Made by a program: the position numbers and the translations under genes. A DNA stretch of 64,000 bases. Origin: Nemertoderma westbladi (lineage: Eukaryota; Animalia; Xenacoelomorpha). The notes beneath the pieces are model-generated. The model was not told the DNA's origin and did not search any database. It worked only from the letters and a program-made list of their open reading frames with translations. The stretch is from the NCBI GenBank assembly GCA_032718475.1, contig JAUCBJ010003847.1:1-64000 (forward strand). The letters run 5' to 3'. Positions 11,401-42,176 of this stretch are shown here, piece by piece. Each line of letters opens with the position of its first letter. The stretch's first letter is position 1.

Positions 11401-11498
11401 TACTACATTTTCTTTTTATAGTTCCGCCCGTGGCTACATTTTGTTCTTATAGTTCCGCCCGTGGCTACATTAAGTTCTTATAGTTCCGCCCGTGGCTA
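11401..11498 (+). repeat. ~31-bp minisatellite (ggctacattttgttcttatagttccgcccgt), also at 3480-3530
   Basis: Three tandem units here; 1-2 units lie immediately before the LTR at 3531. Confidence 0.85.
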
Positions 11499-15074: not shown

Positions 15075-15111
15075 TCCCCCTTCTAGCTCTGAGATTTTCT
15101 CGGAGTTCTCA

Positions 15112-16030
15112 TCAGAGTCTTTCGGGTGGGTGCCGATTTCTGGATGGGTAAGATCGGCATTGACCCCATGTGACAGGTTTGCGTAGGTGATTGTCGGCTA
15201 AGGGCTTCTGCAGTAGAGTTTTCTCGCCGCCTTGGATGATCGAGGTGTCATACAGGAGGAACCGGCGGTTGTGTTGAAGGACGAGCCTGGAAGCCGTTTG
15301 TACCATGTACCGAAGCTTTGGTCCAACTTCGACAATCGTCCCGGTTTTGTCCCAGCGGTTGGTCAACGGATTCTGAATGCGAACCGGATTTCCAACGGTC
15401 AGTGGGTCGAGCGTCTTGGAGCCCTTATTGTATTGGAGTTCTGGGACCTTGGAATCCAACTGGGTGCGGACTTTTTGATGGTCTGAGTGGAATGCCCGAC
15501 TGTGCAGGGACCAGTGTGCGCATCTGGTGGTCGAAGAGGATTTTGGCTGGTGATTTCCCATGAGCCAAGGGCGAGTTCCGTAACCCCATTAGTCCCACCT
15601 TGAACGCTTTGGAGGTTGTTGACCCGCCGACCTTTGTGATGAGTGTTTTAAGTGCTTTGACTGCACTCTCTGCGTGTCCGTTGCTCTGAGCATATTCTGG
15701 CGAAGAGGGGCCCCATGTAATGCCGTAGTCACGTAGGAAGTCATGGGGGGTGGAGCCTGAGAATTGAGTTCCTCCATCGCTGCGGTATCGGGTTGGGATG
15801 CCAAAATGCATGAAAACATCACGGAGGCACTCGACTGTTTTTGCGGAAGTTGGTGGATTGTTGAATGTGTATATCTCTGGCCAACCAGAGTAACGGTCAG
15901 CAATAGCCAGGTAATGTTTCCCGTTTAATACGAAAAAATCGCCCGAAACGTCCTCAAAAGGTCGAGTTGCTAGAGGATCTTGTATGATCGGTTCCTTTGG
16001 GAGGCTTGATCGGTGGGAGAGGCAAGCGCT
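15112..16030 (-). pseudogene. pol: Gypsy integrase core and C-terminus, frameshifted
   Basis: RPFEDVSGDFF, IADRYSGWP, GIPTRYRSDGGTQF, QSNGHAESAVK, SPAKILF, VRIQNP..RWDKTG. Confidence 0.9.
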
Positions 16031-16738
16031 AGTAGTAGAAGAAGGATGGAGCTCCCGCCCCTCCTCCCTAGCTTGGTCTATGGGAGATATCTCGGAGGAC
16101 TATTGAAAATGCTAAATTTTGATGAATTTTAATGACCATCTGTCACCGTCAGTATTGATTCGCGTCTTTGCATCAACCAATCATCGATATTCACCTACGC
16201 GTAGCCTAACCTCGCCATGCACGCCTTACTCAACTGCTGTTACCAACCGACAGTATTGTTTCGCGTCGTTGCATCAACCAATCATCGATATTCATCTTCG
16301 CGTAGCCTAACCTCACGATGCATGCCTAGCCCCACCCACCCACCGCTACTCGACTGCTGTTACTCGATGCTTGCCTAGCCCTCTGGTTACTCCCCCTTTC
16401 CCCTCGCTACCATGACGACAACGATAGAGTCAGTCACGGACGTTGCCATCTCCACACTTGCATATACCAAGCTATGCTATTATATTGATTGTCAACTCAT
16501 CGATTTACCCACCGCTACTCGACTGCTGTTACTAACTAACCAACCTACCAACCAGCCAACCAGTATGAGTCTTGAAATTCCGCTACGCGTACACGTACAC
16601 GTTGTCGCATTTCCATAGTTACTCAACCTAACCCTACCACATCTGTGACATATTGAAAGGCTAACATTATACTGCGCGTTTTTATTATAATTATTGATTA
16701 TTATTATTATTACGCACAACCCAATGATTCATATTCGT
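16031..16738 (+). repeat. Polinton left TIR (708 bp)
   Basis: Reverse complement of 33467-34174, with about 12 substitutions by manual comparison. Confidence 0.95.
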
Positions 16739-17065
16739 CGACGCTAATGAACTAATATGTATGAGTGTTATATGAGACTTGAAATCCCGCTACGCGTACA
16801 CGTACATTATTGATTATTATTATTATTACGCAGAACCCAATATTTTTCAATTGTACTGTATTTCCCTACCAACTAATCAACCAACCAATAAACCGAATTT
16901 AGGCTATTTTACGGTTTAAGACCTGTATTATTTTTGAAAATATCTTATATATAATCTCTTGCTTTAATCACAATTAATCATTTATAATGGTTTTAGTTTA
17001 AAAGTTTTTACTTTGTTTGTTTGATTTACAATAAAATAAATTAAATAATATCTTCTGATTCCGAT

Positions 17066-17299
17066 ATGGTTATGCCAATAGTAAGGCATTCATTTTTTGC
17101 AGAAGATGGCGAAGCCTATATTGTTATTGATTATACAATTTACCGTCGAGGAGATGATAAATATAAAATCGATTTTTCTGAAAAAGCCAGGAAAGTTTTA
17201 AGCACAATTGATATTGATGCTTCTGAAAATACAATTCATCTCTTAGATTACAACCTAAAAGTTGATCATGAGGGAAAATTAATCAACATCTTATTATAA
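17066..17299 (+). CDS. Polinton hypothetical protein (77 aa)
   Basis: ATG-initiated, protein-like composition, first gene after the TIR, co-oriented with the cluster. Confidence 0.5.
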   Translation: MVMPIVRHSFFAEDGEAYIVIDYTIYRRGDDKYKIDFSEKARKVLSTIDIDASENTIHLLDYNLKVDHEGKLINILL

Positions 17300-17330
17300 T
17301 CTATTATAATATTATAATCATCTATTATCA

Positions 17331-17519
17331 ATGATAGATGGGTTAATTGTTATTACACAATACAACGAAGCTGGTGAAAAGTTTGAAATACAACTAAATC
17401 GACATAATCCCTACGAAATTATGTCTTTCTTTATTGTAATGATTTCAAAAGAATCCTTTGTCGAGACTGAAAAATCAACAGATAATGTTGAATTTGTTGA
17501 TAATATCATCGATTCTTGA
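17331..17519 (+). CDS. Polinton hypothetical acidic protein (62 aa)
   Basis: ATG-initiated, closely spaced to and co-oriented with the previous gene. Confidence 0.4.
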   Translation: MIDGLIVITQYNEAGEKFEIQLNRHNPYEIMSFFIVMISKESFVETEKSTDNVEFVDNIIDS

Positions 17520-17703
17520 CTTTTTCCCTTATATTATAAATATTTTATGATTATTTTTAAAATTTTGATCTTTTTAAGTATGAAAACAAAAAAATCAAAT
17601 TTTAAATAATCGAAAATTGTAGTAGTATTTGTATATACAGTATATCGGATTTGTTTGTTATGTATTGAGGTAATTATTTTCAATTTACTTTAAGATTGGG
17701 AAA

Positions 17704-18152
17704 ATGGATATTTTAAACGAAAAATGTCCAGTTTGCTATTATTATTATTGCTACATACATTATTGCTATAGTTATTGCAACATCGAGATTATTATAAATG
17801 TGAAAATAAACATGCAACTTGCGTACGATGTATTGTACAATATTCCGAAATGAATAATTATTGTTCTAAAATTTGTCCTATTTGTCGCACACCCATATCT
17901 AAGTTAAATATGAAGTTGGCGAGATACGAACCCTATTATTGGAAAGAGCTACGAAATATAACTTATATTTCCACGGAAAGTAATATTCCTGGAGATTTAT
18001 TTACAATATTGGAGAATATTTTTTATAGAAATGTAGTACGACGGTGTTGCTACTATGTCCCTTATTTTTTCAACAGCGAACATAGAAAAATTATTGGTGC
18101 AAAATTTCTGGCCCATCTGGTTCCGGAAAGTCTACATTTGTTGGCAATTTAA
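17704..18152 (+). pseudogene. RING-finger (C3HC4-like) protein, frameshifted
   Basis: ATG 17704 gives MDILNEKCPVC; a second frame gives CENKHATCVRC...CPICR. Together they supply the eight RING ligands; the break lies in a (TAT)n-rich stretch. Confidence 0.7.
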
Positions 18153-18724
18153 TTAAACACAAGAATGGTTGCTTCAACGAGCCTCCCTTGCGAGTATTGT
18201 ATTGTTACGGGAGCAATCCCCCGACTATTCCAGGTATTACTCACCTTTACAAAGGTTTGCCAGAAAATATAGATAGTTTAGTGAATAGTCGAGATTTATT
18301 AATTATAGATGATTAATTAACAGAAACTGAGTCCAGTACAGCCTTAACTGTATTGTTTACTAAGGTAACTCATCATTCCAATATATTTATTTGTTTCATA
18401 ACGCAAAACATGTTTTACGGAGGGAAGCATAACCGTACAAGATCAATTAATAGCCATACCTTAGTATTAATGAAAAATCCACGAGACAGTTTATCGGTTT
18501 TAAATTTCGCGAAGCAGATGTTACCAGGGCAGACCAAATTTTTAGTAGATTCCTATCAAGATGCGACTATTGAACCATTTTTGCATTTCTTAATTGATTT
18601 ACGACAGGAAACACCCGAACATTTAAGATTTAGATCGGATATATTTCGTAATCATAATTGTTACATTAAAAATTACATTGACTATAAACGTAGCGAAAAT
18701 AATAATAATAATAATAATAATTAA
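18086..18724 (+). pseudogene. A32/FtsK-like packaging ATPase with in-frame stop
   Basis: One frame carries Walker A ISGPSGSGKST (~18104-18136), VLYCYG, Walker B LLIIDD then TAA (18314), followed by FITQNMF and VLMKNPRD. Confidence 0.9.
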
Positions 18725-18757
18725 TATTTTGTAACAATATTCAATAATGTTGCAACA

Positions 18758-19141
18758 ATGAATCGACTTGTGCAGAAATATCGTAACAAATTGGAATTTC
18801 TACGCAGTGCTACCCCTCAACAAAGAACTTATTCTATTAACCATACCGCGAGTAACGAATTAATACTGCTCTTTGTAAATACTGCATTAAATGTTCTAAA
18901 AGGTAACGTACAATTGACCCCTCATTCATTTAGAAATATTCGTCGTTATAAAAAGGTATTAAAATCACTCAACCGCAAAACAAAAAATATATCAAGTTAC
19001 AGAAAAAAGTTAACCAATCAATCCGGTGGTATACTACCGTTTCTAATACCCTTACTCGGCATTGGCGCGAAACTCGCTGCAGGAGCTGGTGCCGCCGCCG
19101 CTGGAGCGGCTATTGCAAAAAGAATTAACCGCGGACGGTAA
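18758..19141 (+). CDS. Basic core protein with adenovirus pX-like C-terminus
   Basis: NQSGG^ILPFLIPLLGIG resembles the adenovirus pX adenain site and hydrophobic tail (RGG^FLPALIP); Lys/Arg-rich body. Confidence 0.75.
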   Translation: MNRLVQKYRNKLEFLRSATPQQRTYSINHTASNELILLFVNTALNVLKGNVQLTPHSFRNIRRYKKVLKSLNRKTKNISSYRKKLTNQSGGILPFLIPLLGIGAKLAAGAGAAAAGAAIAKRINRGR

Positions 19142-19362
19142 TAATGGTTAAAACGGGAGTAACATTTAGAAAATTATATTTAGTATCGAGTAAACCGTTA
19201 GCTACTGATTTACAACCTCAAGATATACCTAGAGTAAATACTACAAAAAGAAAACCCTTCAAAACATCAACTTCAAAGAAAATAAAAAAATTTCAGCTGT
19301 TTTTACGGTGATGCCCTTTATAAGAGATTTGAATATACATATTACTTGCGGTTGTCGAAAAG

Positions 19363-20451
19363 ATGCCACGCAAGATGAGACCGATTTTAAGCCGAAGCTT
19401 AGACAAAAAACTGTTAAGAATTTATTCAGATCCATCATCACCTGCGGGTTTTGCAAGTATCGCAAAATTAGCAAAAGCCGCAAACATCAAACCATCTCAA
19501 GCTCAGAAATGGTTGAGCGGGCAAAAGACATACTCCCTTCACACACCACGTAGACATCATTATCCAACATCTAAAATATTTACGGGATGGTTAAAAGATA
19601 TATATATGATAGATCTGGTGGATATGCAGCAATATAAATCACAAAATAATAATTATAACTATATATTAACATGTATTGATGCCTTTAGCCGGCTTGCTTT
19701 TGCCTATGGTATGAAAACAAAAACAGGTATTGAAATTATTAGTATATTGCAAAAAATATTCCAGAAAGGTAAACCCACTAGAATCGCGACTGATCAAGGG
19801 TCTGAGTTTCTAAATAAATCTGAAAGAAAATATTCAGATACTATTAGAGTACAGTATTACGTAATGTACTCTGTGAATAAGGCGGCTATTGTCGAGAGAT
19901 TCAATAGAACATTAAAAACAAAGATGTTCAAAATTTTCACGCAATGGGGAAATATTGTTTGGATAAAAATTTTACCAAAGCTTATCTTTGCTTATAATAG
20001 GTCATTTCATAGGACTATACAAATGACGCCCATTGAAGTTAATAAATTTAATGAAACTGAATTAATTAATAGATTATATGGGAAATATAGACAGATTAAT
20101 CACAAGAAAATAAAATTTAAAGTTGGAGATACAGTACGATTATCTATCTCGCGTACTGCTTTTGCTAAAGGCTATCGAGAACAATGGACACGTGAATTAT
20201 TTATTATTCATCGGGTCAGATTGGATATAGTACCAGCGGTAATGTTCGATATTAAGGACAGTGCTGGTGCTATAATAAATGGTTCATTTTATTCATACGA
20301 ACTCCAAAAGGTCCACCCGAGTAGTAATATTTATCTTCCGATTGACAAAAATATTGGCAAACTTAAAGAACGTGTGCGCAATGGGAAAAAAGAATATTTA
20401 GTCCGATTCATTGGATCCAAGAAACAGTCTTGGGTACATCATATTAAATAA
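19363..20451 (+). CDS. INT: Polinton retroviral-like (rve) integrase with chromo-like C-terminus
   Basis: YSDPSSPAGFAS, YSLH, DDE triad in IDLVDM / TDQGSEF / VERFNRTLK, FKVGDTVR, YLVRFIG...SWV. Intact 362 aa. Confidence 0.95.
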   Translation: MPRKMRPILSRSLDKKLLRIYSDPSSPAGFASIAKLAKAANIKPSQAQKWLSGQKTYSLHTPRRHHYPTSKIFTGWLKDIYMIDLVDMQQYKSQNNNYNYILTCIDAFSRLAFAYGMKTKTGIEIISILQKIFQKGKPTRIATDQGSEFLNKSERKYSDTIRVQYYVMYSVNKAAIVERFNRTLKTKMFKIFTQWGNIVWIKILPKLIFAYNRSFHRTIQMTPIEVNKFNETELINRLYGKYRQINHKKIKFKVGDTVRLSISRTAFAKGYREQWTRELFIIHRVRLDIVPAVMFDIKDSAGAIINGSFYSYELQKVHPSSNIYLPIDKNIGKLKERVRNGKKEYLVRFIGSKKQSWVHHIK

Positions 20452-20688
20452 GTTTAGGTTTATACTGTATATTAGTTCATTGAGTGAATAATGGTCACAT
20501 ATGGCCATAATTAATCAATGTTAACTCGAATGATATTACTATACTATACTGTAAGTCTAATATCTATAGTTCATTCGCTTTAAATAAAGCCAGTAAAATA
20601 TTGATCCCTCGCATATACTGTAGACGCGGCAATGAACGTGGCAACAGATGTCTATAATTTAACATTATACTGTATGTACAAAGTAGTC

Positions 20689-20691
<3 letters not shown>

Positions 20692-20724
<33 letters not shown>
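20692..20724 (+). repeat. (AG)n microsatellite
   Basis: About 16 AG units just upstream of penton 1. Confidence 0.9.
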
Positions 20725-20728
<4 letters not shown>

Positions 20729-20744
20729 AATAATAATAATAATA

Positions 20745-21594
20745 ATGACTATAGGTACATATATCACTCTAGTTTCAGATAGCTCATTAAACACATATCC
20801 TAATAATAACCCTAGCGAGTTTACTGTTGATTTAGCCAAAGAATTATATATTGGTCCAAACGCTAAAATTGGGCAAGCAACATACAGTAATATTACTTTG
20901 CAAACTCAAATCTCACTGTCAATCGGGGTAGATGCAAAAGATGCCAAATTATACAGTTTATTTCAAGGTATGCATAGCTCTATTCAAGTCATTATTGATG
21001 ATATAAATAAACTGTTTAATTCTGAAGCGAAATATAAAGATTTCGAATTCATTTTTAATACAAATAATTCTAGAATTAAATTTAAATTTCCTAAAAAGTT
21101 GAAAAAAATACAATTAAGTCTACGCGGTGATTTAATACAAATTCTAGGCTTAAAACAATTATTGGATCAGAATCATCCGGGTATTCCGAATTGGGATATA
21201 TACAGTACCACTACCGTAGATGAATTAAGCAATATAGAACAGCCGATATTAATTTTAAATTATAGTGGACCAAAAATTTCAGAAATTGGTATTTTAGATT
21301 TTCCAGATCCCACAAATATTACTCGTAATAAAGATACAATCTTCATATATACAGATATTATTGAAAGCTCTTTTGTTGGTGATGCTTTAGCTCCGCTCTT
21401 AAGAACCTGTCCTTTAACACAATTAAATCGAAAATATATTAATCACGAATACGAGAGCATTTGCATTACTCATTGTTGAATAAAAAACTAAAAACAATCT
21501 TAATTACTTTACGTGACAGTCAAGGTGAATTAATTAATTCAACGGTGGTCGCACTGTTATAACACTTAAGTTAATACGCGGTGGTGATGGATGA
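20745..21594 (+). pseudogene. Minor capsid protein (penton) 1, C-terminal frameshifts
   Basis: YITLVSDSSLNTYPNNNPSEFTVDL; IFIYTDIIESSFVGDALAPLLR; shifted frames continue ILITLRDSQGELIN and NGGRTVITLKL. Confidence 0.85.
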
Positions 21595-22433
21595 ATTCTA
21601 TGTTAGGCTACCAAGTAACTCGTGTCCAATTGATTTTCCCCATAATACTAATAGTAATTATCAGATCAATTTTCATGGTGCCTTACCTATAAATCCAAAC
21701 GAAAACTGGGTGGTTGGTATAAAAAGTATATTTTACTTAGCCACGTTACCGTCCATGTATAACAATGTAGAGAATGTTATTTTATTAAAAAAGGGAAAAA
21801 AAAAAATTTTGAGGATACACTTCCATCTGGTTTGTTCTACAGTATTAATGACATTATAGATTATTTTAACACTGGGGCGTTGAAAGATAAATTACAAATA
21901 GTTGAAAATACTCAGCAAAATAGATTGCAATTTATTTTAGGGAAAACTGTACGAGAATTATTTATAGGTCAACAATTAGACTATTATTTTGAATTACTGA
22001 AAATAATCTCGGTGTGAATTTAAATCCAAATTTTAAAATTATTTTGAAGACGAAAAATAATATAAAGGGTTATTTAATAAAGATTATCGGAAATGAAGAA
22101 AAAGCTTACCAAATGGTATTTTTATGTCTTCAACCACCCAATTCTATTCCAGAACCTAAGTCAAACATGTGCGTGACTACTAATATAATTGAAAATGAAT
22201 ATATTAATGATTTTGACTTAGCTTTACTTCGTTGCGTGGCGATACCTGATGATGTGAAATATGGCAGTGTAATAAATAAAGAATTTGCCAAGGATACAAT
22301 TCATTATATCCCTGTAAAAAAATCATATATGATAACATACATTCATATTGAAATAACAGACAAAGAAGGAAAAGATTTGAATTTTGAATACGGCACAACT
22401 TCTATTACCTTACACTTTAAAAAAATATATTAA
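21587..22433 (+). pseudogene. Minor capsid protein (penton) 2, frameshifted
   Basis: MDEFYVRLPSNSCPIDFPHNTNSNY...NWVVGI; TNIIENEYIND...LLRCV; IHIEITDKEGKDLNFEYGTTSITLHFKK. Split over ORFs 21581, 21832 and 22014, with one break at a long A run. Confidence 0.85.
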
Positions 22434-22434
22434 A

Positions 22435-22999
22435 ATGGATTCCGATTTACTTCAAAGATACAGTAAACCTCAATATGGTGGTGCAGACTCTAATCTTGCT
22501 GTTTTTAAAGGTGGTAGAAGTACGAGAGGCTCGACACAAGTTCCTGTTTGTCGAGGTGGTTCATATATAGACCCTTACGGTCAACAAATTGGTGCATTTG
22601 GTCCAAATTTAAAACAACGTCGATTTCAACGTTATCGCAGGGGTATGCAGACAAATCAACACGGGGAAGGTATATTTACAGATGCTTTATCTACATTGAA
22701 GAAATTTGGAAAGCCATTAGCAAAAAAGTTTTACAAAAAGCTTTACCATTTACCACAAAATTTATGAGATAACACGTAATACCAAAATGTAAGCGGGTCT
22801 TACATCAGCAGGCTAATACGGTTATTAATAAAACATTAAATAAAATGAAACCATCAACAAGATCGGTTGTAGAAAAAGTTTATAGAGATTTAAAGCGACC
22901 GACTAAACCAATGTCTATGAACATACATCATCGCTGTAGTGAAAATAGAAAAATAAAAAAAGGCAAACTCAAACACTGCGAAAAAAGTATTTTTTAATA
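22435..22999 (+). pseudogene. Core/membrane-penetration protein (pVI/pVII-like), frameshifted
   Basis: Several adenain-like sites (QYGG, FKGG, CRGG, QHGEG) followed by the amphipathic IFTDALSTLKKFGKPLAKK; basic tail in another frame; sits between penton and MCP. Confidence 0.65.
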
Positions 23000-24259
23000 A
23001 TGTCAATTATTAAGGAATTAGATTTATTTTCTATACAGCCAATACAGACTGAATTTAAAGCAAAGCATTATGAAACAATTTACCCGGTATCTAGTCTCAG
23101 AAGCGAGTCTTGGGAAGTAACATTTCTTGTACCGCGATCCAATGAATTCTATACGAAACTACAAGATGCGTTTTTAATTACAAAATCTACTGTACGGTGG
23201 GATAGATGGCTTGAAAACTCACACATTTATATGTTGAATTACCCCTCTGGAACTATGTGGAGTGATATTAAAATAGACCTCAATGAGAAGCAGGTTGAAA
23301 ATAGCAATAACCATTATTTCTACAAGTCGTACTTATCCAATTTACTTTTTACTACATATGAAACTAAAAATGGGCTACTGGGGGCAGGCGGCTTTCGTCA
23401 GCCTTTATCCGAACACGGAAATGAAATTAATCCCGGTGCGCATCCTATTGCCAATGCCTTTAGTAAACAAATGCAATTTGTAAGTGGATTGACGATTGAT
23501 TTTGATACTGAAAGTAAAATAATACAACCCGGGTATGATTTAAGAATGCATTTTAGAAAAGTATCAAATTCGTTTATTTTTAAAATCACTCCAAACGCAA
23601 ACGCTGTGACAAATCTTCGGCTAGAATTAGATGAAGTAAAGATCCTAATCCCTAGAATGGAGGTTAATCCGGTAATAGAAAGCATCCATCTAAAAGGTTT
23701 AGAGAGCTACGATATTGAATATCAATTTCAAAAAAAAGAGGTTACTACATTTACTATTCCCGCTCAAACCACAAATTACACCCAAACAAACATATTTGAT
23801 GGTAAAAAACCCAAATTGGTTATTATCGGTTTTATAACAAATAATTCATATTCGGGTGAATTAACTAGTAATCCGTTGAAATTCGAACATTTTAACCTTA
23901 GACGCGCGGAACTGATTGTAGACGGTCTTCCAGTAGGCGGTGTAATATACGAGCCTAATTTTACTGATGGAACATACATTTTTGAGTATACTCAATTAAT
24001 GAAGAACATTAATACATATATTAACGGTTATGGAGGTAATAATATAGACCATGAAACCTACTTAGGTAATTGCCCCCTCATATCCTGGGACCTAACTGCC
24101 GACGGCTATGTTAGGGATCCGCAACCATCGATATATACTAATGGACAATTAAAATTAAGATTTGCCGATCCGTTGGTTGAGACCATATATGTAATCGTTT
24201 TTAATATTTATAATCAATCATTAAGCTTAAATAGCAGGAAAGAAATACATATCGATTAA
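23000..24259 (+). CDS. MCP: Polinton major capsid protein (double jelly-roll, PY/hexon-like)
   Basis: KELDLFSIQPIQT...YPVSSL, YKSYLSNLL, PKLVIIGF...YSGELTSNPLKFEHFNL, WDLTAD, LRFADPL. Intact 419 aa. Confidence 0.93.
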   Translation: MSIIKELDLFSIQPIQTEFKAKHYETIYPVSSLRSESWEVTFLVPRSNEFYTKLQDAFLITKSTVRWDRWLENSHIYMLNYPSGTMWSDIKIDLNEKQVENSNNHYFYKSYLSNLLFTTYETKNGLLGAGGFRQPLSEHGNEINPGAHPIANAFSKQMQFVSGLTIDFDTESKIIQPGYDLRMHFRKVSNSFIFKITPNANAVTNLRLELDEVKILIPRMEVNPVIESIHLKGLESYDIEYQFQKKEVTTFTIPAQTTNYTQTNIFDGKKPKLVIIGFITNNSYSGELTSNPLKFEHFNLRRAELIVDGLPVGGVIYEPNFTDGTYIFEYTQLMKNINTYINGYGGNNIDHETYLGNCPLISWDLTADGYVRDPQPSIYTNGQLKLRFADPLVETIYVIVFNIYNQSLSLNSRKEIHID

Positions 24260-24261
24260 GT

Positions 24262-24726
24262 ATGTTATCTACAGAGGACCTTGATATGTTTCCAGTGGGT
24301 GGTCACTATTTAGGGGCATTTCCATCTACTAAATTATCTAAATTAGATAATAATAATAATAATTATAAGCGAAGAGACTATGGGTTAATAGTAAATACCG
24401 ATAAAGCGCATCTACCTGGTGTTCATTGGGTGGCTATATATATACGAGATAATGAAGCTGAATTATTTAATTCATTTGGTCCAAAATATCCAAACAGATG
24501 TATCGAAAAATGGCTTGAGAAAAATTCAACAAAGTGGTGTACTACTCGCAGGCAATTTCAAGACCCTAGAAGGACCACATGCGGGTTATACTGTCTTTAT
24601 TACTTGGTAAATCGAATTCACACAAACTATCCAATGAGAGCGTTTACAAATAATGTGGAAATAAATGAAATAATATTATATAAATGGCTTGTTAATTATT
24701 ATAAAATAAACCAACAAGCATTGTAA
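24262..24726 (+). CDS. PRO: Adenain-like cysteine maturation protease
   Basis: IVNTD...GVHWVAI, FNSFG, QFQ...TTCGLYC (catalytic His and Cys, oxyanion Gln). Confidence 0.93.
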   Translation: MLSTEDLDMFPVGGHYLGAFPSTKLSKLDNNNNNYKRRDYGLIVNTDKAHLPGVHWVAIYIRDNEAELFNSFGPKYPNRCIEKWLEKNSTKWCTTRRQFQDPRRTTCGLYCLYYLVNRIHTNYPMRAFTNNVEINEIILYKWLVNYYKINQQAL

Positions 24727-24770
24727 TTAATCATTTAACTTTTGTTTATCTAAATATATTATCAGATAAA

Positions 24771-25340
24771 ATGGATAATATTATTTTTGTCGATTTTCAA
24801 TATTATACGATAGACAATAAGGAATATCCGGTAGTATTTAAAGAATTTGCTATATTCGATTCTAATTACACCAAAACTAATGTAAAGACATTTTTAATTA
24901 AAGGACCCCCTGATATTAACTTATTGGCATTAGATAAAGCCCACGTAAACAATTTACGGGACATGACTTCACATTTACCCTGGGATTACGGTGACATTTC
25001 GCAAGATGACTTTAAAAAGTACATGAAGAGACATTTAAAATATAAAAAAATTATATATGTATTCGGGTTGATGAAGCTGGCAATATTAATTTCCGAACTT
25101 GATGTACTTGCTCCAAAATCGATGGAGAAATTGGGAATATATCAACGGTATTACAACTATTTAACCCCGTGTCCCTTCCATGATCAATTTACTACAGTAG
25201 AAAATAAATGCGCTTACCACTTAAACAGAAAGGATAACTGTCTGCGGTACTGCTCCGCAAAACGAGTCGGAGGGTATGTAATGAAACGATTTTTCGTGAG
25301 AACGCGATTAACTGTAGTGGAAGATGTACTCGTACAGTAG
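24771..25340 (+). CDS. Polinton PW-like protein (DEDD/DnaQ-fold-like, Cys/His C-terminus)
   Basis: IFVDFQ...FKEFAI, LPWDYGD, IYVFGLMK, CAYH...CS, a pattern I recall from the conserved gene next to Polinton proteases. Confidence 0.6.
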   Translation: MDNIIFVDFQYYTIDNKEYPVVFKEFAIFDSNYTKTNVKTFLIKGPPDINLLALDKAHVNNLRDMTSHLPWDYGDISQDDFKKYMKRHLKYKKIIYVFGLMKLAILISELDVLAPKSMEKLGIYQRYYNYLTPCPFHDQFTTVENKCAYHLNRKDNCLRYCSAKRVGGYVMKRFFVRTRLTVVEDVLVQ

Positions 25341-26130
25341 GTTTACTCTAAGCATGTAATGTGATGGGATAATATAATTGTTTTAATGTCAATAAAAATA
25401 ATTAAAACATTAAAATCTATTTTTTATATCTCAGTTTGACGGGAGGTGGGGTTTAGGTTTACACTCACAAACACACCACACCTACCGGTAGCCGGCTGTT
25501 GTATCTGAGTTTAACTACAAGTAGCTGACTTTATACATACAGACATATAACAACGCTAAACTGCAGAATGGCTCCCCTTCTAGACTGACAGCACCCACAT
25601 CGCTTTAGCGTTACTAGTAATAAAATTAAATTAACTCGACATGTGGTTCGTATATGCGGCATTAGAGGGGCCCGCCTAACAATAGGCCTACTGGTACTGT
25701 AGCACTCTTGTAACAGTATACTTGGATAGTGCATGCCGGTTCCTTCGATTTAAGGATTATTACACTTGAATGCTTCCAATTTTCTGTTTACAACTTTAAT
25801 TGGCCTAATCTAGATTATTATTACTGGGGCTACTACTGTCGCATAGGTAAGCCTTTACTATACAGCTATAGTTAACTTTATGCGGCCCCTTTTTCGAATG
25901 TAGGCCCAATATGGTTTACGGTTAACCTTTAGAACTCACGGACAGGCATACCTTCATTCAACCAGTCATATAATGATTCCTCAACTGAAAGCCGGCCAGC
26001 TCATTGATACAATAGGTGTGGCTATAGCAATATATAAAATCCACCGCTCACAAGTTCATTCACTTCATTTTGTAGGCCTATATAAAACATAGTTAGTTTA
26101 TTTATGTATTCGCTTTTTTTTTTAATTAGA

Positions 26131-26747
26131 TATAAAATAGACAAAAAACCTACTGCTACCGGTAACACATTAACACAAACAGACTGACTGACTGATTACA
26201 TACGAGTCTACTGACGGTGTATTCTTGGATCTGGCGGTAGGCCAACAGGAGCTACTGATACTTCTGCTTCAGTCGCTTCTTCTTCCCAGTCAGCCAGTGC
26301 TCACCCTCACTATAGTTATCAAGTCTTATCTGGTGAGCTTCTCCATATAAAATAGACAAAAAACCTACTGCTACCGGTAACACATTAACACAAACAGACA
26401 GACTGCCTGATTACATACGAGTCTACTAATGGTGTATTCTTGAATGTGGCGGTAGGCCCACAGGAGCTACTGATACTTCTGCTTCAGTCGCTTCTTCTCT
26501 CCAGTCAGCCAGCGCTCACCTCACTATAGTTATCAAGTCTTATCTGGTGAGCTTCTCCATATAAAATAGACAAAAAAAACCTACTGCTACCGGTAATACA
26601 TTAACACAAACAGACAGACTGACTGATTACATACGAGTCTACTGGTGTGTTCTTGGATCTGTCGGTAGGCCAACAGGAGCTACTGATACTTCTTCCCAGT
26701 GCTCACCCTCACTATAGATATCAAGTCTTATATGGTGAGCTTCTCCA
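26131..26747. repeat. Three ~215-bp tandem copies of the 3' end and trailer of gene 26639-26965
   Basis: Units start tataaaatagacaaaaaa at 26131, 26346 and 26560 and end tggtgagcttctcca. Confidence 0.92.
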
Positions 26748-26965
26748 GCCTGCACACGAATGTTTAAACTAAAGTTTTTATTTGTAGACAATGTTGTTTG
26801 TCTGCCTTCGCTCGTTTTATTTCTAACCATTATAGTAATCACTCCATTGTCATTTTTCAAATGTAATTCCATTACATTTAACGATGTAAAAAACAACTGT
26901 TCCCCTTCAAGATCAAACTTTAGCAAACAGTCGCTATCCCTATTTCCAATAAATGCGAACGACAT
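26639..26965 (-). CDS. Polinton hypothetical beta-rich protein (108 aa)
   Basis: ATG-initiated intact ORF co-oriented with the PolB block; alternating hydrophobic pattern. Confidence 0.55.
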   Translation of the reverse strand: MSFAFIGNRDSDCLLKFDLEGEQLFFTSLNVMELHLKNDNGVITIMVRNKTSEGRQTTLSTNKNFSLNIRVQAGEAHHIRLDIYSEGEHWEEVSVAPVGLPTDPRTHQ

Positions 26966-27649
26966 ATCTTGATTGATTGAATGGTTGATGGATCACCGCG
27001 ACTGAAGTTTGGAGGTTAGTTTTTGCAAGTACAAATACAAGTAGGTCTATACCGGTATTTTTATTTACGGTAACAAAATTATACTTAAGATATAATTGAG
27101 CTTATATATATTTTTGTAGAGGGTCGCAGATGTTTACATTACAAAATTCACATAGTTAACAAAATGCACAACATAAACTTTTCCCATGCGGATTAGCGAT
27201 ATATGCTCTGTTCATTGTTCTATTCTATTCTATTCTATTCTGAATGTAGGGAAATGCATAGCCGATGTTTTAATAATATGTACTGGTATACAGGCTAGTA
27301 ACAGATAGGAGGGCTTCGACTTTGATTATGAATACCAGTACATAGCCCTAAACTTTTCTCACCGAGCTTAGCGATGCTCGCTGCACACACTCATAAGTAA
27401 CAGATGCGCAACTGTAGCTCACTCGTGCGATGCTTAGCTAGCTAGCTACTGTCTCTAGGTATACTATGCATACTTGGCTGTTACAAGCAATCGCTCTGCC
27501 GAAGTTAGTTAGTTTCCCCAACTAGTTGTTGATTTAAAAAATATTCATAAATTTCTTCTCCCTCAATTTAATATATATATACATATTTTACAGTAAAAAA
27601 TCCCCACCACCAAACAACAACAATAAATTTTACTCTCTCTAATTATATT

Positions 27650-28216
27650 TTACATCAAAAACCCTCCACCAAACAATAATAAATTATTAACCAGTTTGTT
27701 GAATATAGGATAATATATATGAAATTTAAACGGAGAACACATTAATGAACTTTTACCTGTGTAGAAACAGCAAACAACAACAATATTATTTATTCTGACT
27801 TTACAGTTATTGAATATTTCTGGCTCGTATGAAATTTCTAGTTTAACATTATCAAATATAACATAAAACTCGATATTGTTTATAAGTAACCTATAGATTA
27901 CAGTGTCAATACTAAAAATATAAGTACACAAATTGATAGATTTAAAAATCAAATTAATGTTTGTTTGTTCAAATATATGCTTTTTAACTTTATTAAAATT
28001 ATATTTTCTACCAAGAATTGTTATTCGTCCATTTGTAAACATTAATATGGTTGCACCAAATACCTTATATATAAACTGATTAGGTTTGAGTATAATTTTA
28101 CCTGTCAATTGATTTTTTAATTCTTTTAAATTAAGTCCATAAATGATCTGCTTACAACTTATATTTTTATTTACTATTTGATAATTCATCATCATCATCA
28201 CCTTTTGGTTCTTCAT
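27650..28216 (-). CDS. TATA-binding protein (TBP)-like protein
   Basis: Two TBP-like repeats: YQIVNKNISC...GATILMFTNGRITILGRK and SINLCTYIF...ISYEPEIFNN...VVCCFYTGK (compare TBP TALIFSSGKMVCTGAK and SYEPELFPGL...LLIFVSGK). Confidence 0.78.
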   Translation of the reverse strand: MKNQKVMMMMNYQIVNKNISCKQIIYGLNLKELKNQLTGKIILKPNQFIYKVFGATILMFTNGRITILGRKYNFNKVKKHIFEQTNINLIFKSINLCTYIFSIDTVIYRLLINNIEFYVIFDNVKLEISYEPEIFNNCKVRINNIVVVCCFYTGKSSLMCSPFKFHIYYPIFNKLVNNLLLFGGGFLM

Positions 28217-28237
28217 AAGTTGGTATATTTGATATTT

Positions 28238-31200
28238 TTATAGGTTTTTGAGGTTTGTTTTATAGTGTCCCCAAGGAAGTGATTGATTTTTATTAAGCCA
28301 ATAAAGTTTATCATCAAAGCTACTGAGTGCAAATTTATTTTGCTTTAAGGTATAAATACGATGTAATTTAGATTGAAATCTGTTTATATATTTTTTTATT
28401 TCTTCATTTGAGTTATATGCTTTTAAATATTCTTCATGAGTAATATTCGTTTCCACAATAGCTCTTGTAATACCTTTTGCTCTGCGAATATTTCTGTTAT
28501 TCCATTCCAAAATTGAATATAATTTTGGTCTTAAAAATACTGCTTGTTTAATTTCACGTGAGGCTAGTTCATCTTTACAGTGATAAAGTCTCGATTTATT
28601 TTTATTACTATAAAGCGGGTGATCCTGTGGGTAATTGGATGTATCTAAAATATTATTTTTAATTAATGCTTTTAAAAAATTATTCTGCGATGTATTATAA
28701 TAACAACCTATTAATGAGTCTGTATCTGATGCGACAATTTCAATACGGCAGTTTAATTCTTTCTCAATAGGTAGTAATCTATTGTAATACAGTTCATACA
28801 TATCAAGTTTAGCCAAATCCAACACCGCGCTACCAATAAATATAGGCTTATCAAGAGTTACAGAGTCTTTCACTAATAAATGACCTGATAATGTATTATT
28901 GTATATTATAAATTGTTCATGATTAATACGATTCACCAATTGGTCGCATTTATCATTGCTATTTGTGATACGAAAGTTACATCTCTCCCGTATCTTTTCT
29001 ATTGTCTTACCAAATAAAGAGTTATTAAGCAGCTTTGCGACAGCCGTTTCAATGTAACTTTTTGCTAGTCGCCTTTGATTAATATTAAAATCTATGTAAT
29101 TTTTAAATACAAATTCTTGTTGAAAAGAATATAATTTATGTAGTTTAGTAACAATTAATCCTTGTTTTATATAAAATTTTAACAGTTTCAAATGTAAAAT
29201 AATGATAAAATTCTTTATCAAATTGCGTCAGCAAGAGTTTTGGAGTAGACATGTTATATTTACTGGAGGTACCTCTTTGTATCGATAAGTTATTAAATTG
29301 TTCTCTCATATAAGGTGAAAGCATTGATTCATTTATACTTAAATGCTCTGGGGCTAACGGTAATTGTAATGTTTGATCGTGAATAGCTTTGGGGTAATTT
29401 AAATCACATATTAAAAAATATCCAGTAGATCCGTCATTGTCTAAATCTACCAAGTACTCGATTAGTTTTTCTGGAATTGCATTCTCTAAATGTTTAATAC
29501 TTACTTCTTTGAATTGTGAAGTGGGTAGTTTTTTACTTAAATTCCCAGAATATAAAGAGTTGAAATCAATATTAAAAATATGGCATTCTTCCTTAGTAGA
29601 ATCATATGTACTTGTTTCGGGTATATTTGATTCTATATAATGCTTTCGACAAAATGAAACACCACCCCTAATTGATTTTTCAAAATCTCTATATGTCTGA
29701 TAATCCTTTATTAATTCTATTTTACATTTATTATATTTTAGAGCGCAATCATAGGTAAATGACGCGATACTACAGTAAAAAACCACTTCTAAATCGTAAT
29801 TTTGTATACAAACATTCCTAAAATTCTCAAATATATCAGCAAGCAAACAAACATCGAGTTTTAAATAAGCTAAAAGATAATCTTTGAGATTCACACAGTC
29901 GAATTCTACCCATGATAATCCCGCAAACCTATAATCTTCAATTGTACATTTTTTTTGACTTAAGTTACTAAAAAAAATATTTATAGATGGTAAACCAGTA
30001 TCATTAAATTTATTTATATCTGTCAAGTACTCGTATAGAAATACTCCTTTCCGATTAATTGTTGAGTTATTCAAGTTTGGATAAAAATATTTCATTTCTT
30101 GTAGAGTAATTGGTAAAATTGAGCTTATATCATGACTCGCTACATCCTTTGTTGAACACTCAACTAAATTACTTAGGGAAAAGCTTAAAAATTGATATGT
30201 GTCTAAGACACGTAACTCAATTTTTTTAGAAGTGTTTTTAATTGGGATAAATGCACTCAGTGAAATATATCGTTCTGTATTTCTCGGTATAACCTTTATA
30301 TCCCAATCCGTGTATTTCTTATCTCTAAATCCGGTTTGTAATATACAATGTATATCGTAATTATTGGCATTGTGCCCACAAAGTACATACAGGTATCGTT
30401 TCTCTATTGACTTCTTCCTTGGTAGCAGGCGAGACGGTGACGATGGAGAACTTCCGCTCGAAAAAAATGCACTAAACATCGTTCACAATATTGCCTATTG
30501 ACGATATGAAGAGCTCTCGTATTCAGCAATCGATTCAAGTTAGTTATGTAAACATAATGATTCAGTTTAGGTACATTGTTATTTTTTACTACAAGTAATA
30601 TATTTAATAACTCTTTATCTGGTGTAATTTTACTAAATGGTGGTTGTCTTAATATAGATACGGGGGTGCGTTTGTTGTCGTTATTCCAACATAGTAAATT
30701 AATTATATATTTAGAATTTTGTTTTTCAAAAAGTTTAATCGCTAGCTGCCACTCTGTTGGATAATAATTTTTCCCGTTGTCAAAAATGAAATGACTCATA
30801 TAATTTTTGTACTGCGAAGTACGGTATTTGTGATTTTTCACTTTGCTACTAAATTTTGCGGCTATAATAGCCCATTTGAAACAGTCATTATCAGCCGATT
30901 GTATATTTATTGTACATTAGATACTCGATAGAACCTTAGGTAATTCCATATATCCATGTCCCTTATATAGTAACGACCTACACTTAGATTCAGCTAATTT
31001 AATTTCAACTCTTAATAATGATTTAATACGCCAGCCCAAACCACGTGTGTTAAAGATGGCTATTTTTTGTAATATATTTTGCACCACATACTCAAACCAT
31101 GTGTCAAAACTTTGTGATGAATCTACAGTATTAATAGCACCACCGGAAGAATTAAAATAAAAGGTTTCTAATTGTTTGCCTTCTGAAAAATATGATCTGT

Positions 31201-31744
31201 ACATTATTACAATTAGACCTAACCACAGTCTAAGAACATTCATTTCTTTCAATCTGTCTAATATTAACTGAAGAATATTACCTCGAATTTGCGCTAATGC
31301 TGTTTCTACATCTGGATAATCTCTAGAAGTTGGGAGGTTGTGGACATAAATTTCAAGACGATTATCGTGAGCTTCTTGTTCCCACGTAAAAATTGTTGCA
31401 CATGTACCAAGAGCCACCCTTAAGTTTTTTCTAGATATTATATTTTTATGTTGCGGAGATATACACTTTCTTGTGTAATAACATTTCAAGTGACAGTCGT
31501 GTCGTAAATAATTCTCATATGTATACTCTTTATTACAGGTAGAACAAGTCAATTGATAGGTACGGAACTCCATTTCTTTACAACCCGTAGTTGATTCATG
31601 TCGTTTACAAATTTCACTGCATGAAGTCACGACATGACACTTAAAACAAGAATAACCTTCAAAATGTGACTTTAGGTGATGTAAATAATTATGTCTAGTT
31701 ACATTCATATGACAGAATGAACAACATATTGCTATTTTATCCAT
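28238..31744 (-). pseudogene. pPolB: Protein-primed family B DNA polymerase polyprotein (Zn fingers, terminal-protein region, OTU-like, exonuclease, polymerase), disrupted
   Basis: FNTRGLGW, YMELP, in-frame TAA at 30917-30919, then INIQSADNDCFKWAIIA...HYVYI, CERC, HNANNYD, RKGVFLYEY, YLKLDVCLLADIFENFR, SIRGG, DFNSLY, KLLNNSLFGK, SDTDS, LRPKLYS, AKGI. Frameshifts near 30410 and 29200. Confidence 0.95.
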
Positions 31745-31934
31745 GTTGAAGTTTGTTTAGATTATTTAATAATAATAATAATAAAATATCACCAAAGATT
31801 AAAATAAAATAAAATGAAATGAAATGAAATAAAATGTTATTGACTATATCTAAACATTTATATGCTACCGTGTGAAATAATTTTAAATCAATCACCAATC
31901 GCTTATAGGTATTGGAAACCTCAAAGGGTTTAAC

Positions 31935-32357
31935 TTATGATAGGGTTTCCATGTAAGAATAATAATCAGGTTTCCATGGAGAATTAGTAACTGGATCTAC
32001 TGGAACTGGGTTAACAGCAAATTTCTGTTTCTTTGCAGGTGATGCGTTGGTTAATTTACTCGATGATCTTGGCTTCCGAGGTAATATTTCAGGAAAGACC
32101 TGTTGCGGTTGAGAGCAACTCTCTTCAAGATTCGGTTTGGGTGATGGGATCTCTACGATTGCTTTAGGTTTATCCAAAAGGACAAAACCATCTACATTAG
32201 CTTCAGTAAGAGAAACACCATCCATTGCCTCTTTGAGAAAACTAATATGAGCTTTATCATTCAAGTAATGCAACTCAATAGAATTTCCACCTGTATCGAC
32301 TTCAGTAGAATTATTGGTGTTGGTAATAATAATTTTTTTATTATTGGTTTTAATCAT
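31935..32357 (-). CDS. Polinton hypothetical protein (140 aa; Pro/Ser-rich tail, NLS-like PAKKQK)
   Basis: Long ORF in AT-rich DNA, co-oriented with and upstream of pPolB. Confidence 0.55.
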   Translation of the reverse strand: MIKTNNKKIIITNTNNSTEVDTGGNSIELHYLNDKAHISFLKEAMDGVSLTEANVDGFVLLDKPKAIVEIPSPKPNLEESCSQPQQVFPEILPRKPRSSSKLTNASPAKKQKFAVNPVPVDPVTNSPWKPDYYSYMETLS

Positions 32358-32616
32358 TTTGAGACGGTCTGATAGTTAAATGATATTTTTATCAAAAAGA
32401 CTCAAAACTCTCGCAACAAAACGGTTAGTTCCTGATTTGACAAATTGAAAAGATTGAATAATAGTTAAAACCAACACTATCAGCGTATCTGAGGCTGATT
32501 TTCCATAAGCCAACATAGTTGGTTCCCTTAAAAGCTGTTACAAATCCAATAAACTCTGGATTTGATAATTCAATGTAAAATTGATCGCTAATAATCTCTA
32601 GCGGTGGAGAGAGAAA

Positions 32617-32985
32617 TTACAATAATTTCCCTCTGTATTGAATTAGAACTTCAGTAAAAGCTTTGTTGAGAACTTTACATTTGCCTTGTTTCTGAACATA
32701 AACATCACCCAACGTAGGGTTGATAGAAATATTCAAATTTCCTCGTGCAAAACGAAGATTGGGATATATCCTACCTGGTATAATTGGTGGTCTGGATTGA
32801 TGTTGGTTGTTGGTTGTTTCTAGAATGTCCAGCAAATAGCGGGTATCTTGATGGGAAAAACAAATTGATTCGTTGTCATCCTGAGATTCCACAATAAAAT
32901 ACTTGCTGTGAACGACAGTGCAAGTATATTTATTGTAAGTAAATTTCCAGCTATTTGTTGCTCCGGTTTTTTGCATTAAGGCCAT
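32617..32985 (-). CDS. Polinton hypothetical protein (122 aa)
   Basis: ATG-initiated intact ORF, first gene inward from the right TIR. Confidence 0.55.
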   Translation of the reverse strand: MALMQKTGATNSWKFTYNKYTCTVVHSKYFIVESQDDNESICFSHQDTRYLLDILETTNNQHQSRPPIIPGRIYPNLRFARGNLNISINPTLGDVYVQKQGKCKVLNKAFTEVLIQYRGKLL

Positions 32986-33466
32986 AATAATAATAAATAC
33001 GAAAAATATTACAAGTGATAAATTTTAAACTGAATCGCTGTAATCAATTGACACCATAGTTCTCACTCTAAAGTTGTGATGGTCGGAAAACAACACCTGA
33101 GAAAAATGATACTGACTCACTCATTGGATATCAAACATTAGAACTACTCAATATCGGAATCAGTATCATTTATTCAAGTGTATGATTTTCCGACCAACGA
33201 ATATACAACGAGTAAGATAATGAAGAAATTATTAAGGAAATAACACAATTTCAGAGTGAGAACAAAAAAATTAGATATGGTATCAATTTATTACCATGAA
33301 GATTACAAGTGATGAATTTTAATAAAAACATTCAGTTATATATAATTTCTGAATATAACATGTAAGCAACAAATATGCGGCATAGTCAACAACGAATAAG
33401 AAAAGAGATGTGATGCAATGTGAATGAATTGTTGGTTGGTTGGTAGCGTGGGTAGGAAATACGTGT

Positions 33467-34174
33467 ACGAATATGAATCATTGGGTTGTGCGTAATAATA
33501 ATAATAATCAATAATTATAATAAAAACGCTCAGTATAATGTTAGCCTTTCAATATGTCACAGATGTGGTAGGGCTAGGTTGAGTAACTATGGAAATGCGA
33601 CAACGTGTACGTGTACACATAGCGGAATTTCAAGACTCATACTGGTTGGCTGGTTGGTAGGTTGGTTAGTTAGTAACAGCAGTCGAGTAGCGGTGGGTAA
33701 ATCGATGAGTTGACAATCAATATAATAGCATAGCTTGGTATATGCAAGTGTGGAGATGGCAACGTCCGTGACTGACTCTATCGTTGTTGTCATGGTAGCG
33801 AGGGGAAAGGGGGAGTAACCGGAGGGCTAGGCAAGCATCGAGTAACAGCAGTCGAGTAGCGGTGGGTGGGTGGGGCTAGGCATGCATCGTGAGGTTAGGC
33901 TACGCGAAGATGAATATCGATGATTGGTTCATGCAACGACGCAAAACAATACTGTCGGTTGGTAACAGCAGTTGAGTAAGGCGTGCATCGCGAGGTTAGG
34001 CTACGCGTAGGTGAATATCGATGATTGGTTGATGCAACGACGCGAATCAATACTGACAGTGACAGATGGTCATTAAAATTCATCAAAATTTAGCATTTTC
34101 AATAGTCCTCCGAGATATCTCCCATAGACCAAGCTAGGGAGGAGGGGCAGGAGCTCCATCCTTCTTCTACTACT
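33467..34174 (-). repeat. Polinton right TIR (708 bp)
   Basis: Mirror of 16031-16738. Confidence 0.95.
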
Positions 34175-40559: not shown

Positions 40560-42176
40560 ATGTTACAACCACAGCCGAGTAATACCGCACCGATAACAGT
40601 AGAACAAGGTCATAGCAGTAGATATCCGACACAAATGGAGGAGAAAAACCATATTAATTTAACTCCTCCAAAGGAGCGGAAAAAACACCTAAGAAGCCCA
40701 CTTAGACCACGCAGACCTATCGCGCAAAGAAGACAACTAGATAGGATATTCATGAAGTATGATAAGGTAGAAATTAATGAGGATATATCGGAAAGCGCTA
40801 ACCATGGTGGGACTAGGCAACTATTCAATATGGATGATATAGTCTCTTGGGATGAAGAAAGAGCTACAAGATATATTTCCAAGGATGTAATCGGATGGGT
40901 TATACAAAGCACCCCATTTAGAGTTGTGATTGTTTTACTAATTATAGTGAATTCAATCATGATTGGAATTCAGACAATGGAAACTCTCATGCGTGAATAC
41001 GAAAGTTTCTTTGCTGCATTTGACATATCGTTAACCACGATATTTGTTGGAGAAATATTGTTAAAATGGAGGTATAATTTCTTCTTGTATTGGAAGAGTG
41101 GATGGAATTTTCTGGACGTTATACTCATTGGAGCAGTCCTTATAGAAGGTAACCTAAAGTTTTTAGTGAGTGGTCGTGTGTTAAGGATACTTAGAGTCCT
41201 TAGGGCATTGAGAACCTTCCGTGGTACCCAGTTATTTTTTGGATTATCCACTCTGATGGAAACTATCCTCTACTCTCTTCCAGACATGGCTAATATCGCT
41301 ATGCTTCTGTTAATTGTTATGATGATGTTTTCCGTAATAGGCTCCATTCTATTTGGGTCTGAATATCCTGAATATTTTGGTAATTTTGCAAATGCGTTGT
41401 TTACAAACTTTATCTGCGTCACTCAGGATGGATGGGTTGAAATATACCGAAAAAAGATGATCTTGAGCGATATATCAACCTACGCGGCAATATATTTTAT
41501 GTTATCAATTATAATTGGAGCTTTTGTTTTTGCGAATATAATTATCGCTGTGGTTGTAACTAATTTAGATAAATCAATTCGAGGAAAAGAAGAGGCCCCG
41601 GATGCCATAAAAGACAAAATTAAAAAGCTCGCATTCACCAACAGAATAGGCTGGTCTGAGCTTGAAAGTAAAATTCCAATGGTTCACCCGAATGTGTCAA
41701 TGTCTAGTTACAATGTGTTCAAACAAAAACCATTGGAACTTATCGATTTCTCCAGAGTACATCCATATAGACTGGAAACATATTTTCTTATAATTCTTGC
41801 TTTGGAAGAAAATCTCAAACAATATCGGATACTTCGTGAAAGACTCCAAAGGGTTGTTGAAAAACAAAACGAATACAGTCACAATTTACAAATGAAAAGG
41901 AAAGAGACTGTCTTGGAACCAAAATCAAAACTTCGGCGATCAACATCTATTGATTACGAGCTTATGGGCGAATTAACGCGCAGAGGAGATATAGTTTCTG
42001 GAATCGTTGAGATGGATAAACGGAACATGTTGGAGAAAGATGATGGACGTGGTGGTATCATTGAATTAGTGCGACCTCAAACCCAGAAACAAACTGCTGC
42101 TGCTAAAAATCTAGTGAGGAAAGGATCGTTGACCACATTGTATGGAGTCCAAGGTCGACAGAGAGACAATAAATAA
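40560..42176 (+). CDS. CATSPER4: CatSper4-like sperm cation channel alpha subunit, intronless (paralogue A)
   Basis: Single 6-TM domain: S4 GRVLRILRVLRALRTFR, YWKSGWNFLD, pore CVTQDGW (TQDGW is the CatSper4 filter), S6 FVFANIIIAVVVTNL, coiled coil ALEENL. Confidence 0.88.
   Translation: MLQPQPSNTAPITVEQGHSSRYPTQMEEKNHINLTPPKERKKHLRSPLRPRRPIAQRRQLDRIFMKYDKVEINEDISESANHGGTRQLFNMDDIVSWDEERATRYISKDVIGWVIQSTPFRVVIVLLIIVNSIMIGIQTMETLMREYESFFAAFDISLTTIFVGEILLKWRYNFFLYWKSGWNFLDVILIGAVLIEGNLKFLVSGRVLRILRVLRALRTFRGTQLFFGLSTLMETILYSLPDMANIAMLLLIVMMMFSVIGSILFGSEYPEYFGNFANALFTNFICVTQDGWVEIYRKKMILSDISTYAAIYFMLSIIIGAFVFANIIIAVVVTNLDKSIRGKEEAPDAIKDKIKKLAFTNRIGWSELESKIPMVHPNVSMSSYNVFKQKPLELIDFSRVHPYRLETYFLIILALEENLKQYRILRERLQRVVEKQNEYSHNLQMKRKETVLEPKSKLRRSTSIDYELMGELTRRGDIVSGIVEMDKRNMLEKDDGRGGIIELVRPQTQKQTAAAKNLVRKGSLTTLYGVQGRQRDNK

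Follow-up and report, generated by a model that had tools for sequence, protein, structure and literature searches.

The window, a 64,000-nucleotide stretch of Nemertoderma westbladi contig JAUCBJ010003847.1, contains a Polinton/Maverick element of 18,144 bp (16031..34174) that opens with AGT-AGT and closes with ACT-ACT. The AGT-AGT end motif is as in the part of PMC8097293 available to us. Terminal inverted repeats of 713 bp bound the element (left, 16031..16743, plus strand; right, 33462..34174, minus strand), and a 6-bp target-site duplication, AGCGCT, flanks it (16025..16030, with the second copy at 34175-34180). The repeats differ by 14 mismatches over 719 nt, a span that includes the palindromic target-site duplication. 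On the plus strand lie a broken packaging ATPase with a Walker A motif (18086..18724; 34-43% identity to the ATPases of loci L019 and L039), an open retroviral-type integrase (19363..20451; Pfam rve, E 9e-9) and an open adenovirus-type cysteine protease (24262..24726; Pfam Peptidase_C5, E 1.5e-4). Between integrase and protease are two putative minor capsid genes (20745..22433, plus strand), both broken, which we take to be penton genes from their position and, in part, from their motifs. They are followed by an open putative major capsid gene of 419 aa (23000..24259, plus strand), named from position and size. The putative capsid genes, major and minor, have no Pfam library match; the major one shares 23% identity over 431 aa with an L039 ORF lying between integrase and protease. 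The protein-primed DNA polymerase B gene (pPolB) occupies 28238..31744 on the minus strand in at least four pieces and has 109 homologues, some of which carry the PF03175 domain. Terminal inverted repeats, AGT-AGT ends, a 6-bp target-site duplication, pPolB, integrase, ATPase and protease are all present, and the element is a complete but decayed 18.1-kb Polinton.

The Polinton apparently inserted into the pol gene of a decayed LTR retrotransposon. The flanking pol pieces, read by eye from the ORFs, are integrase-like on the left and RNase H/RT-like on the right (15112-15811; 34710-36220, minus strand). Inside the element, a tandem array of three units, each about 215 bp long and 92-96% alike, lies between its two converging modules (26130-26965) and overlaps the end of a 108-aa minus-strand ORF. 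A broken RING-finger-like ORF lies just upstream of the ATPase (17704-18152, plus strand; weak match to Pfam zf-C3HC4_3, E 0.045). An unannotated ORF at 24771-25340 (plus strand) and another at 11226-11690 of L019 have a similar N-terminal D-F...KE-x-A pattern (BLASTP E 0.03) and are perhaps a shared nuclease-like Polinton gene. Outside the element, two intronless paralogous cation-channel ORFs (40560-42176 and 56540-58171, both plus strand; 538 and 543 aa) lie 16 kb apart and are 73-77% alike in DNA stretches. The best PDB match of the first is CatSper4 (E 1e-50), and the pair are possibly retrocopies or a tandem duplication.

Next to pPolB, on the same strand, lies an ORF for a protein with two TATA-binding protein (TBP) lobes, P0001 (27650..28216, minus strand). 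It has 188 codons and no introns; the plus-strand frame tried over this interval is closed. The intronless 188-aa ORF proposed in a first-pass annotation is therefore real, on the minus strand. Both TBP repeat motifs quoted there are found in it, and the protein does lack a long N-terminal extension. Its net charge is +15. Codons 7-10 are a run of ATG, a trinucleotide repeat. Because the length of this run varies between copies, the true start is likely one of these four methionines; the start of a second Polinton TBP, P0115, falls at about the same codons in the alignment. The reported 21-bp gap to pPolB exists in this copy, as 21 bases between P0001 and the last pPolB piece (28238-28801). 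The spacing is nevertheless copy-specific, because a frame difference near the pPolB 3' end sets this copy apart from all aligned depth in X3, X4 and X5 and from one third of it in X1.

Other statements about the ORF fared less well. It had been called as AT-rich as the element, but its GC content of 23.6% is below both the 31.9% of the element interior and the 27.3% of the neighbouring pPolB piece. It had also been called intact, but most aligned depth of X1, X3 and X4 has a one-base frame difference near 27660-27670, and the last few codons are therefore copy-specific. Codons 84, 156 and 157 are non-synonymous against all aligned X1 depth, and the latter two sit on a strand where other TBPs have hydrophobic residues. 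As reported, breaks are present in pPolB, in the ATPase gene and in each of the two putative penton genes. That the TBP ORF stayed open among them is no more than chance. Counted by hand, the element's 11,446 coding bases contain 11 breaks, which gives a probability of 0.58 for no break in 567 bp, and 7 of the 13 other genes are also open, including integrase, putative major capsid and protease. The open state carries no weight as an argument, and this genomic copy is probably a decaying member of its family.

Evidence of selection comes from the other copies. Five public sequencing runs overlap the stretch, none of them sharing more than 0.33 of its words, and family copies were seen as contigs from these runs; contigs from four runs were aligned to the stretch. 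None of the runs is listed as RNA, though X5 may be. Summed contig depth reaches tens of thousands in X1 and X3, which is not a copy number but suggests many element copies. Variant sites were taken from the best 40 of 236 rows, and 22 of the 28 listed in the ORF were used, with six adjoining indels left out. Twelve of the 22 are synonymous, against 19-26% expected (p 2e-4 to 3e-3), and pN/pS among family copies is 0.19-0.28. In the adjacent pPolB piece 6 of 9 variant sites are synonymous. Because of this synonymous excess among its variants, the TBP gene is constrained by purifying selection at the level of the family.

Profile searches support the TBP assignment. Pfam PF00352 matches P0001 in two stretches with 24.8 bits, above the cut-off of 22.9 (E 1.9e-5). 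The NCBIfam archaeal TBP model matches residues 17-156 (E 0.003) across both of its lobes, at model positions 9-155 of 183. The two lobes are tandem in one chain, and in the NCBIfam match they are correctly spaced. A profile built from three TBPs gave P0001 13.0 bits, against 7.9 for the best shuffle (2000 shuffles, of which 1967 scored) and 6.1 for the reversed sequence. A 64-sequence TBP profile that excluded the query recovered it at E 4e-8. In the ESM Atlas, 29 of 30 matches carry PF00352 at 0.94, with a recognition value of 1782 that lies below the threshold of 2300. Searches with the single sequence were empty: there was no homologue in a 5.8-billion-sequence collection (near and shorter lengths), no phmmer/HMMER match among 1.84 billion representatives, and no match among PDB sequences, PHROGs, or viral and metagenome contigs. 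A pPolB piece and the putative capsid, each searched in viral contigs, likewise had no match. The homology claim of the first-pass annotation thus holds, with the Pfam cut-off passed, both lobes of the NCBIfam model matched and every scored shuffle surpassed, and P0001 is by these profiles a diverged two-lobed TBP.

Structure prediction, expected to give the TBP saddle, speaks less directly. From the single sequence AlphaFold reached a pLDDT of 33, and that model had no structural match. With 55 TBP rows the pLDDT rose to 63 with the strand and helix order of TBP, but this model depends on the TBP alignment and is circular. The same circularity applies to its 43 Foldseek matches at E <=0.001, all of those listed being TBP (best E 2e-6), and to its VIA comparison (Z 10.4, rmsd 6.9, 159 residues aligned). 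Matches in BFVD are mainly proteins of large DNA viruses, with herpesvirus U58 matched weakly (E 0.012). The model shows only that P0001 is compatible with the TBP fold.

A second Polinton encodes a related protein. An alignment of pPolB homologues yielded 36 loci, the metagenome scan having covered 14 of 64 parts. One of them, L019 (Ga0209655_10000188), encodes P0115, a TBP of 169 aa (Pfam E 2e-15). P0115 is the best match of P0001 among 1571 ORFs (E 5e-5) and among 65 TBPs, and the two share 27% identity over 127 columns. The pPolB of L019 is only 39% identical to that of the window, which supports the proposed long residence of TBP in Polintons. The suggested linkage to pPolB does not extend to relatives. 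The P0115 gene lies directly before the packaging ATPase, 5.5 kb from pPolB, and among the 31 loci listed, TBP is absent after pPolB in all 17 relatives with at least 900 bases of flank. Only 8 of the 36 loci reach 8 kb, a length limit that applies to any estimate of how common TBP is in Polintons. A pPolB-TBP fusion was considered and rejected, with PF00352 on none of 109 long pPolB homologues.

In a TBP tree that omits P0116, P0117 and P0124, P0001 and P0115 join each other (92/92) on very long branches (8.2 and 5.7) of unusual composition. A third long branch, P0004, does not join the pair, and no link appears to the two viral-contig TBPs included. Because the branches are so long and their composition so unusual, the tree does not fix the donor or origin of the Polinton TBPs. 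Two further loci, L001 (857-2566) and L006 (2572-4281), carry identical 570-residue viral ORFs with an N-terminal TBP-like domain and a long basic C-terminal region.

Residues were compared through P0002, which aligns gap-free to the human core with an offset of 155. Aromatic residues had been reported at the intercalating positions, and three of the four are Phe: F60, F135 and F151 occupy the positions of human F214, F288 and F305. The lobe Phe is present in both lobes (F60 and F151; human F214/F305). Of the presumed stirrup Phe (human F197/F288), F135 is kept, and the first stirrup has no clear counterpart: some alignments place F48 at the site, where the L019 protein has no Phe. L58, G63, R64, R141, G154 and K155 are also retained, as is the second stirrup, Y130-E-P-E-I-F135. 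We take a symmetric Asn/Val/Thr set to be the base-reading residues of TBP, and P0001 departs from it. The first lobe probably retains its Asn, as N16 or N18 depending on the alignment, and the second-lobe Asn is T98. At both Thr positions the two Polinton TBPs have other residues (L68 and M159/C160 in P0001). Several base-reading positions are lost, and sequence-specific binding by P0001 is therefore not assured. The two proteins share a first stirrup shortened to KPxQ and a first strand that reads N-x-N; both also have FxNG and carry S or T where the second-lobe Asn would be. A reading from a four-sequence alignment, with helix H1' deleted and N113 as the second-lobe Asn, was dropped once P0115 bridged the alignment.

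The surface that faces TFIIB is better preserved. In the available text of PMC7221094, the lobe Phe is the main DNA residue and two C-lobe glutamates contact TFIIB; both are variable among viral TBPs, almost all of which occur together with a viral TFIIB. By our own mapping onto these residues, P0001 keeps both glutamates, as E131 and E133. In both Polinton TBPs no motif is better kept than YEPE(I/L)F, which faces TFIIB, whereas the side that faces DNA is eroded. Because the base-reading residues are changed and the stirrup glutamates kept, we describe the predicted DNA face of the Polinton TBPs as rebuilt and their predicted TFIIB dock as host-like.

P0001 resembles cellular TBP and TRF (PF00352; human core 1cdw, archaeal 1ais) in its two lobes, the F-x-x-G in both, the YEPE-x-F second stirrup and the predicted order of strands and helices. 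It differs in its low identity (about 20-27%), a shortened first stirrup without a clear Phe, a short first H2, and replacement of the second-lobe Asn, both Thr and the P-G after the stirrup. Unlike them, it also lacks an N-terminal extension and is the product of a mobile element. Among viruses, TBPs have been described in large DNA viruses (PMC7221094 and PMC12917281, in their available portions) and in herpesviruses. Like P0001, the nucleocytovirus TBPs, poxvirus VITF-3 among them, are highly diverged, keep the lobe Phe and have lost the eukaryotic N-lobe signatures, as far as the accessible text of both papers goes. According to the same text they pair with a viral TFIIB and a viral RNA polymerase, whereas neither was detected by Pfam among the ORFs scanned from this element and L019, where a very diverged TFIIB among the small ORFs is possible.

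A closer functional model is the BcRF1/ORF24/UL87 proteins of beta- and gamma-herpesviruses. As described in the available part of PMC4893493, these have a viral TBP fold in viruses with no RNA polymerase of their own, bind a TATA variant and bring host RNA polymerase II (Pol II) to late genes. The same text places them in a six-protein complex, and they are far larger (the U58 row has 1005 aa). P0001 consists of little more than the core, some 180 aa, and its TFIIB stirrup is of the host type; the herpesvirus TATT box (TATTWAA) precedes 0 of 10 genes here, and the Pfam families of the five herpesvirus-type partner proteins were absent from the ORFs scanned. P0001 is not a member of this family.

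A TBP-like gene in a pPolB-bearing DNA virus or element of middle size has one published counterpart, a 'TBP' label in the Fig. 5 legend on MELD viruses with adintovirus-like PolB (Starrett et al. 2021, PMC8502044). It is a bare label without analysis, in a section (3.4) on non-animal datasets, and the comparison with P0001 is by label alone. This label, in PMC8502044 and its preprint, is the only mention of TBP in Polinton-like elements in the openly readable text of the literature searched. 'TBP' or 'TATA' is absent from the main text of PMC8097293 and of bioRxiv 10.64898/2026.10.13.758929, a match in PMC12220804 is confined to the reference list, and one PMC8502044 supplement mentions neither.

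What such a protein could bind was sought in promoters. Two TATAAAA boxes, with first bases at 28264 and 28242 (28236..28264, minus strand), lie just upstream of the TBP ORF, inside the pPolB 3' end. They are two of four on the minus strand of 25401-33461, which is weak evidence in AT-rich DNA. The pair is a candidate TBP-gene promoter that host TBP may read, and a transcription start 25-30 nt below the 28242 box would make Met7-10 the first usable start. Upstream of the element's 10 plus-strand genes no motif beat random sets. YATAAAC and TATAAGA each precede 1 of 10 and TAAGA 3 of 10 (p 0.08); TATAAACA, TATTWAA and CATAAA precede none. YTATAR, chosen post hoc, precedes 6 of 10 (p 0.001) without strand bias and with the ATPase start guessed, and is only a lead.

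In L019, the coding strand of 4001-19005 has 11 CATAAAC sites where 1.5 are expected, and the other strand has 0; all sites fall within 11153-18662. Nine of the 11 lie 11-168 bp before a start, none of them before TBP or pPolB, and four overlap the stop codon of the upstream gene. De novo motif discovery scored 1.5e-7, barely better than the best of 30 random sets (2.0e-7). Two L019 genes, one of them KilA-N, have near-identical leaders (11700-11780 and 12910-13030). These contain a canonical TATAAATA together with a TTTTCAGGTACGA block that is repeated, and may represent a second class of promoter, used early. L019 also carries PLA2-like and C2H2 genes.

We think it somewhat probable that P0001 is a one-protein promoter factor, which would bind a TATA-like box of the element and recruit host TFIIB and Pol II. 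The TBP would be made early, from its own canonical, host-readable TATA box. Its three retained Phe, on a rebuilt and asymmetric saddle, would bind and kink DNA at the TATA-like element box, and the retained YEPE stirrup would dock host TFIIB. Host TFIIB and Pol II would thereby be brought to the capsid, packaging and integrase genes, and the remodelled N-lobe may escape host regulators of TBP. Redirection of host Pol II is the best reading because P0001 retains the glutamates that bind TFIIB, and Pfam detected neither a TFIIB nor an RNA polymerase gene among the ORFs scanned. The herpesvirus TATT-binding proteins set a precedent for it (PMC4893493, available text), and E131, E133, F60/F151, the charge of +15 and the strand-specific CATAAAC before many L019 genes argue for it. 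Against it stand the lack of a box upstream of this element's own genes, the lost base-reading positions and the five partners that the herpesvirus factors need (same portion of PMC4893493). More tentatively, and a little short of an even chance, the minimal TBPs of animal Polintons may be one old, monophyletic family whose DNA face is rebuilt and whose TFIIB dock is intact. Each would read a TATA variant specific to its lineage and, as a single protein, switch on late genes through host Pol II.

The same imbalance between a well-kept YEPE(I/L)F and an eroded DNA face would also suit a decoy that shuts off the host, holding TFIIB through the acidic stirrup or sitting on host TATA boxes without activating element genes. 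No box was found in this element, which fits as well. We nevertheless consider a decoy unlikely: the three Phe and the basic charge are kept, L019 has its strand-specific TATA variant before many genes, and a germline-integrated element would presumably gain little from general shut-off.

It is rather improbable that the element is virophage-like and that its TBP fits the transcription machinery of a large DNA virus to element promoters. Most viral TBPs come from viruses with their own TFIIB (PMC7221094, available sections), and the BFVD matches of the model point to large DNA viruses. Both Polinton proteins, however, keep the host-type glutamates that vary in viral TBPs with their own TFIIB (same sections), no helper virus is in evidence, and in the tree the Polinton pair shows no link with either viral-contig TBP sampled. 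A role outside transcription, in which the TBP fold bends or coats AT-rich element DNA in replication, integration or packaging, strikes us as distinctly improbable. The gene adjoins pPolB here and the packaging ATPase in L019, and the branch lengths of 8.2 and 5.7 attest strong divergence; yet this role would leave the TFIIB-facing stirrup kept in both proteins unexplained, and the gene does not sit in the same place in the two elements. Finally, P0001 could be what is left, without function, of a host TBP that was captured, or an AT-rich ORF that matches by chance. This would accord with the low scores, the empty phmmer search of 1.84 billion representatives and the private changes in this copy, but the synonymous excess, the two correctly spaced lobes, the shuffle control and the homologue in another Polinton make it highly improbable and have already largely refuted it for the family.

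Among the Polinton TBPs, the window copy is a poor model because it is decayed, and L019, where the CATAAAC box occurs, is better suited to examining the promoter factor that we favour. A TBP of their own would offer a concrete mechanism by which Polintons switch on their capsid genes, and it bears on whether they have a viral cycle at all. TBPs that nature has re-specified without loss of TFIIB docking would also reveal the extent to which the TATA code can change. If animal Polintons do share such a family of late-gene switches, it would be the smallest viral pre-initiation system known and a sign of a staged infection cycle in Polintons.
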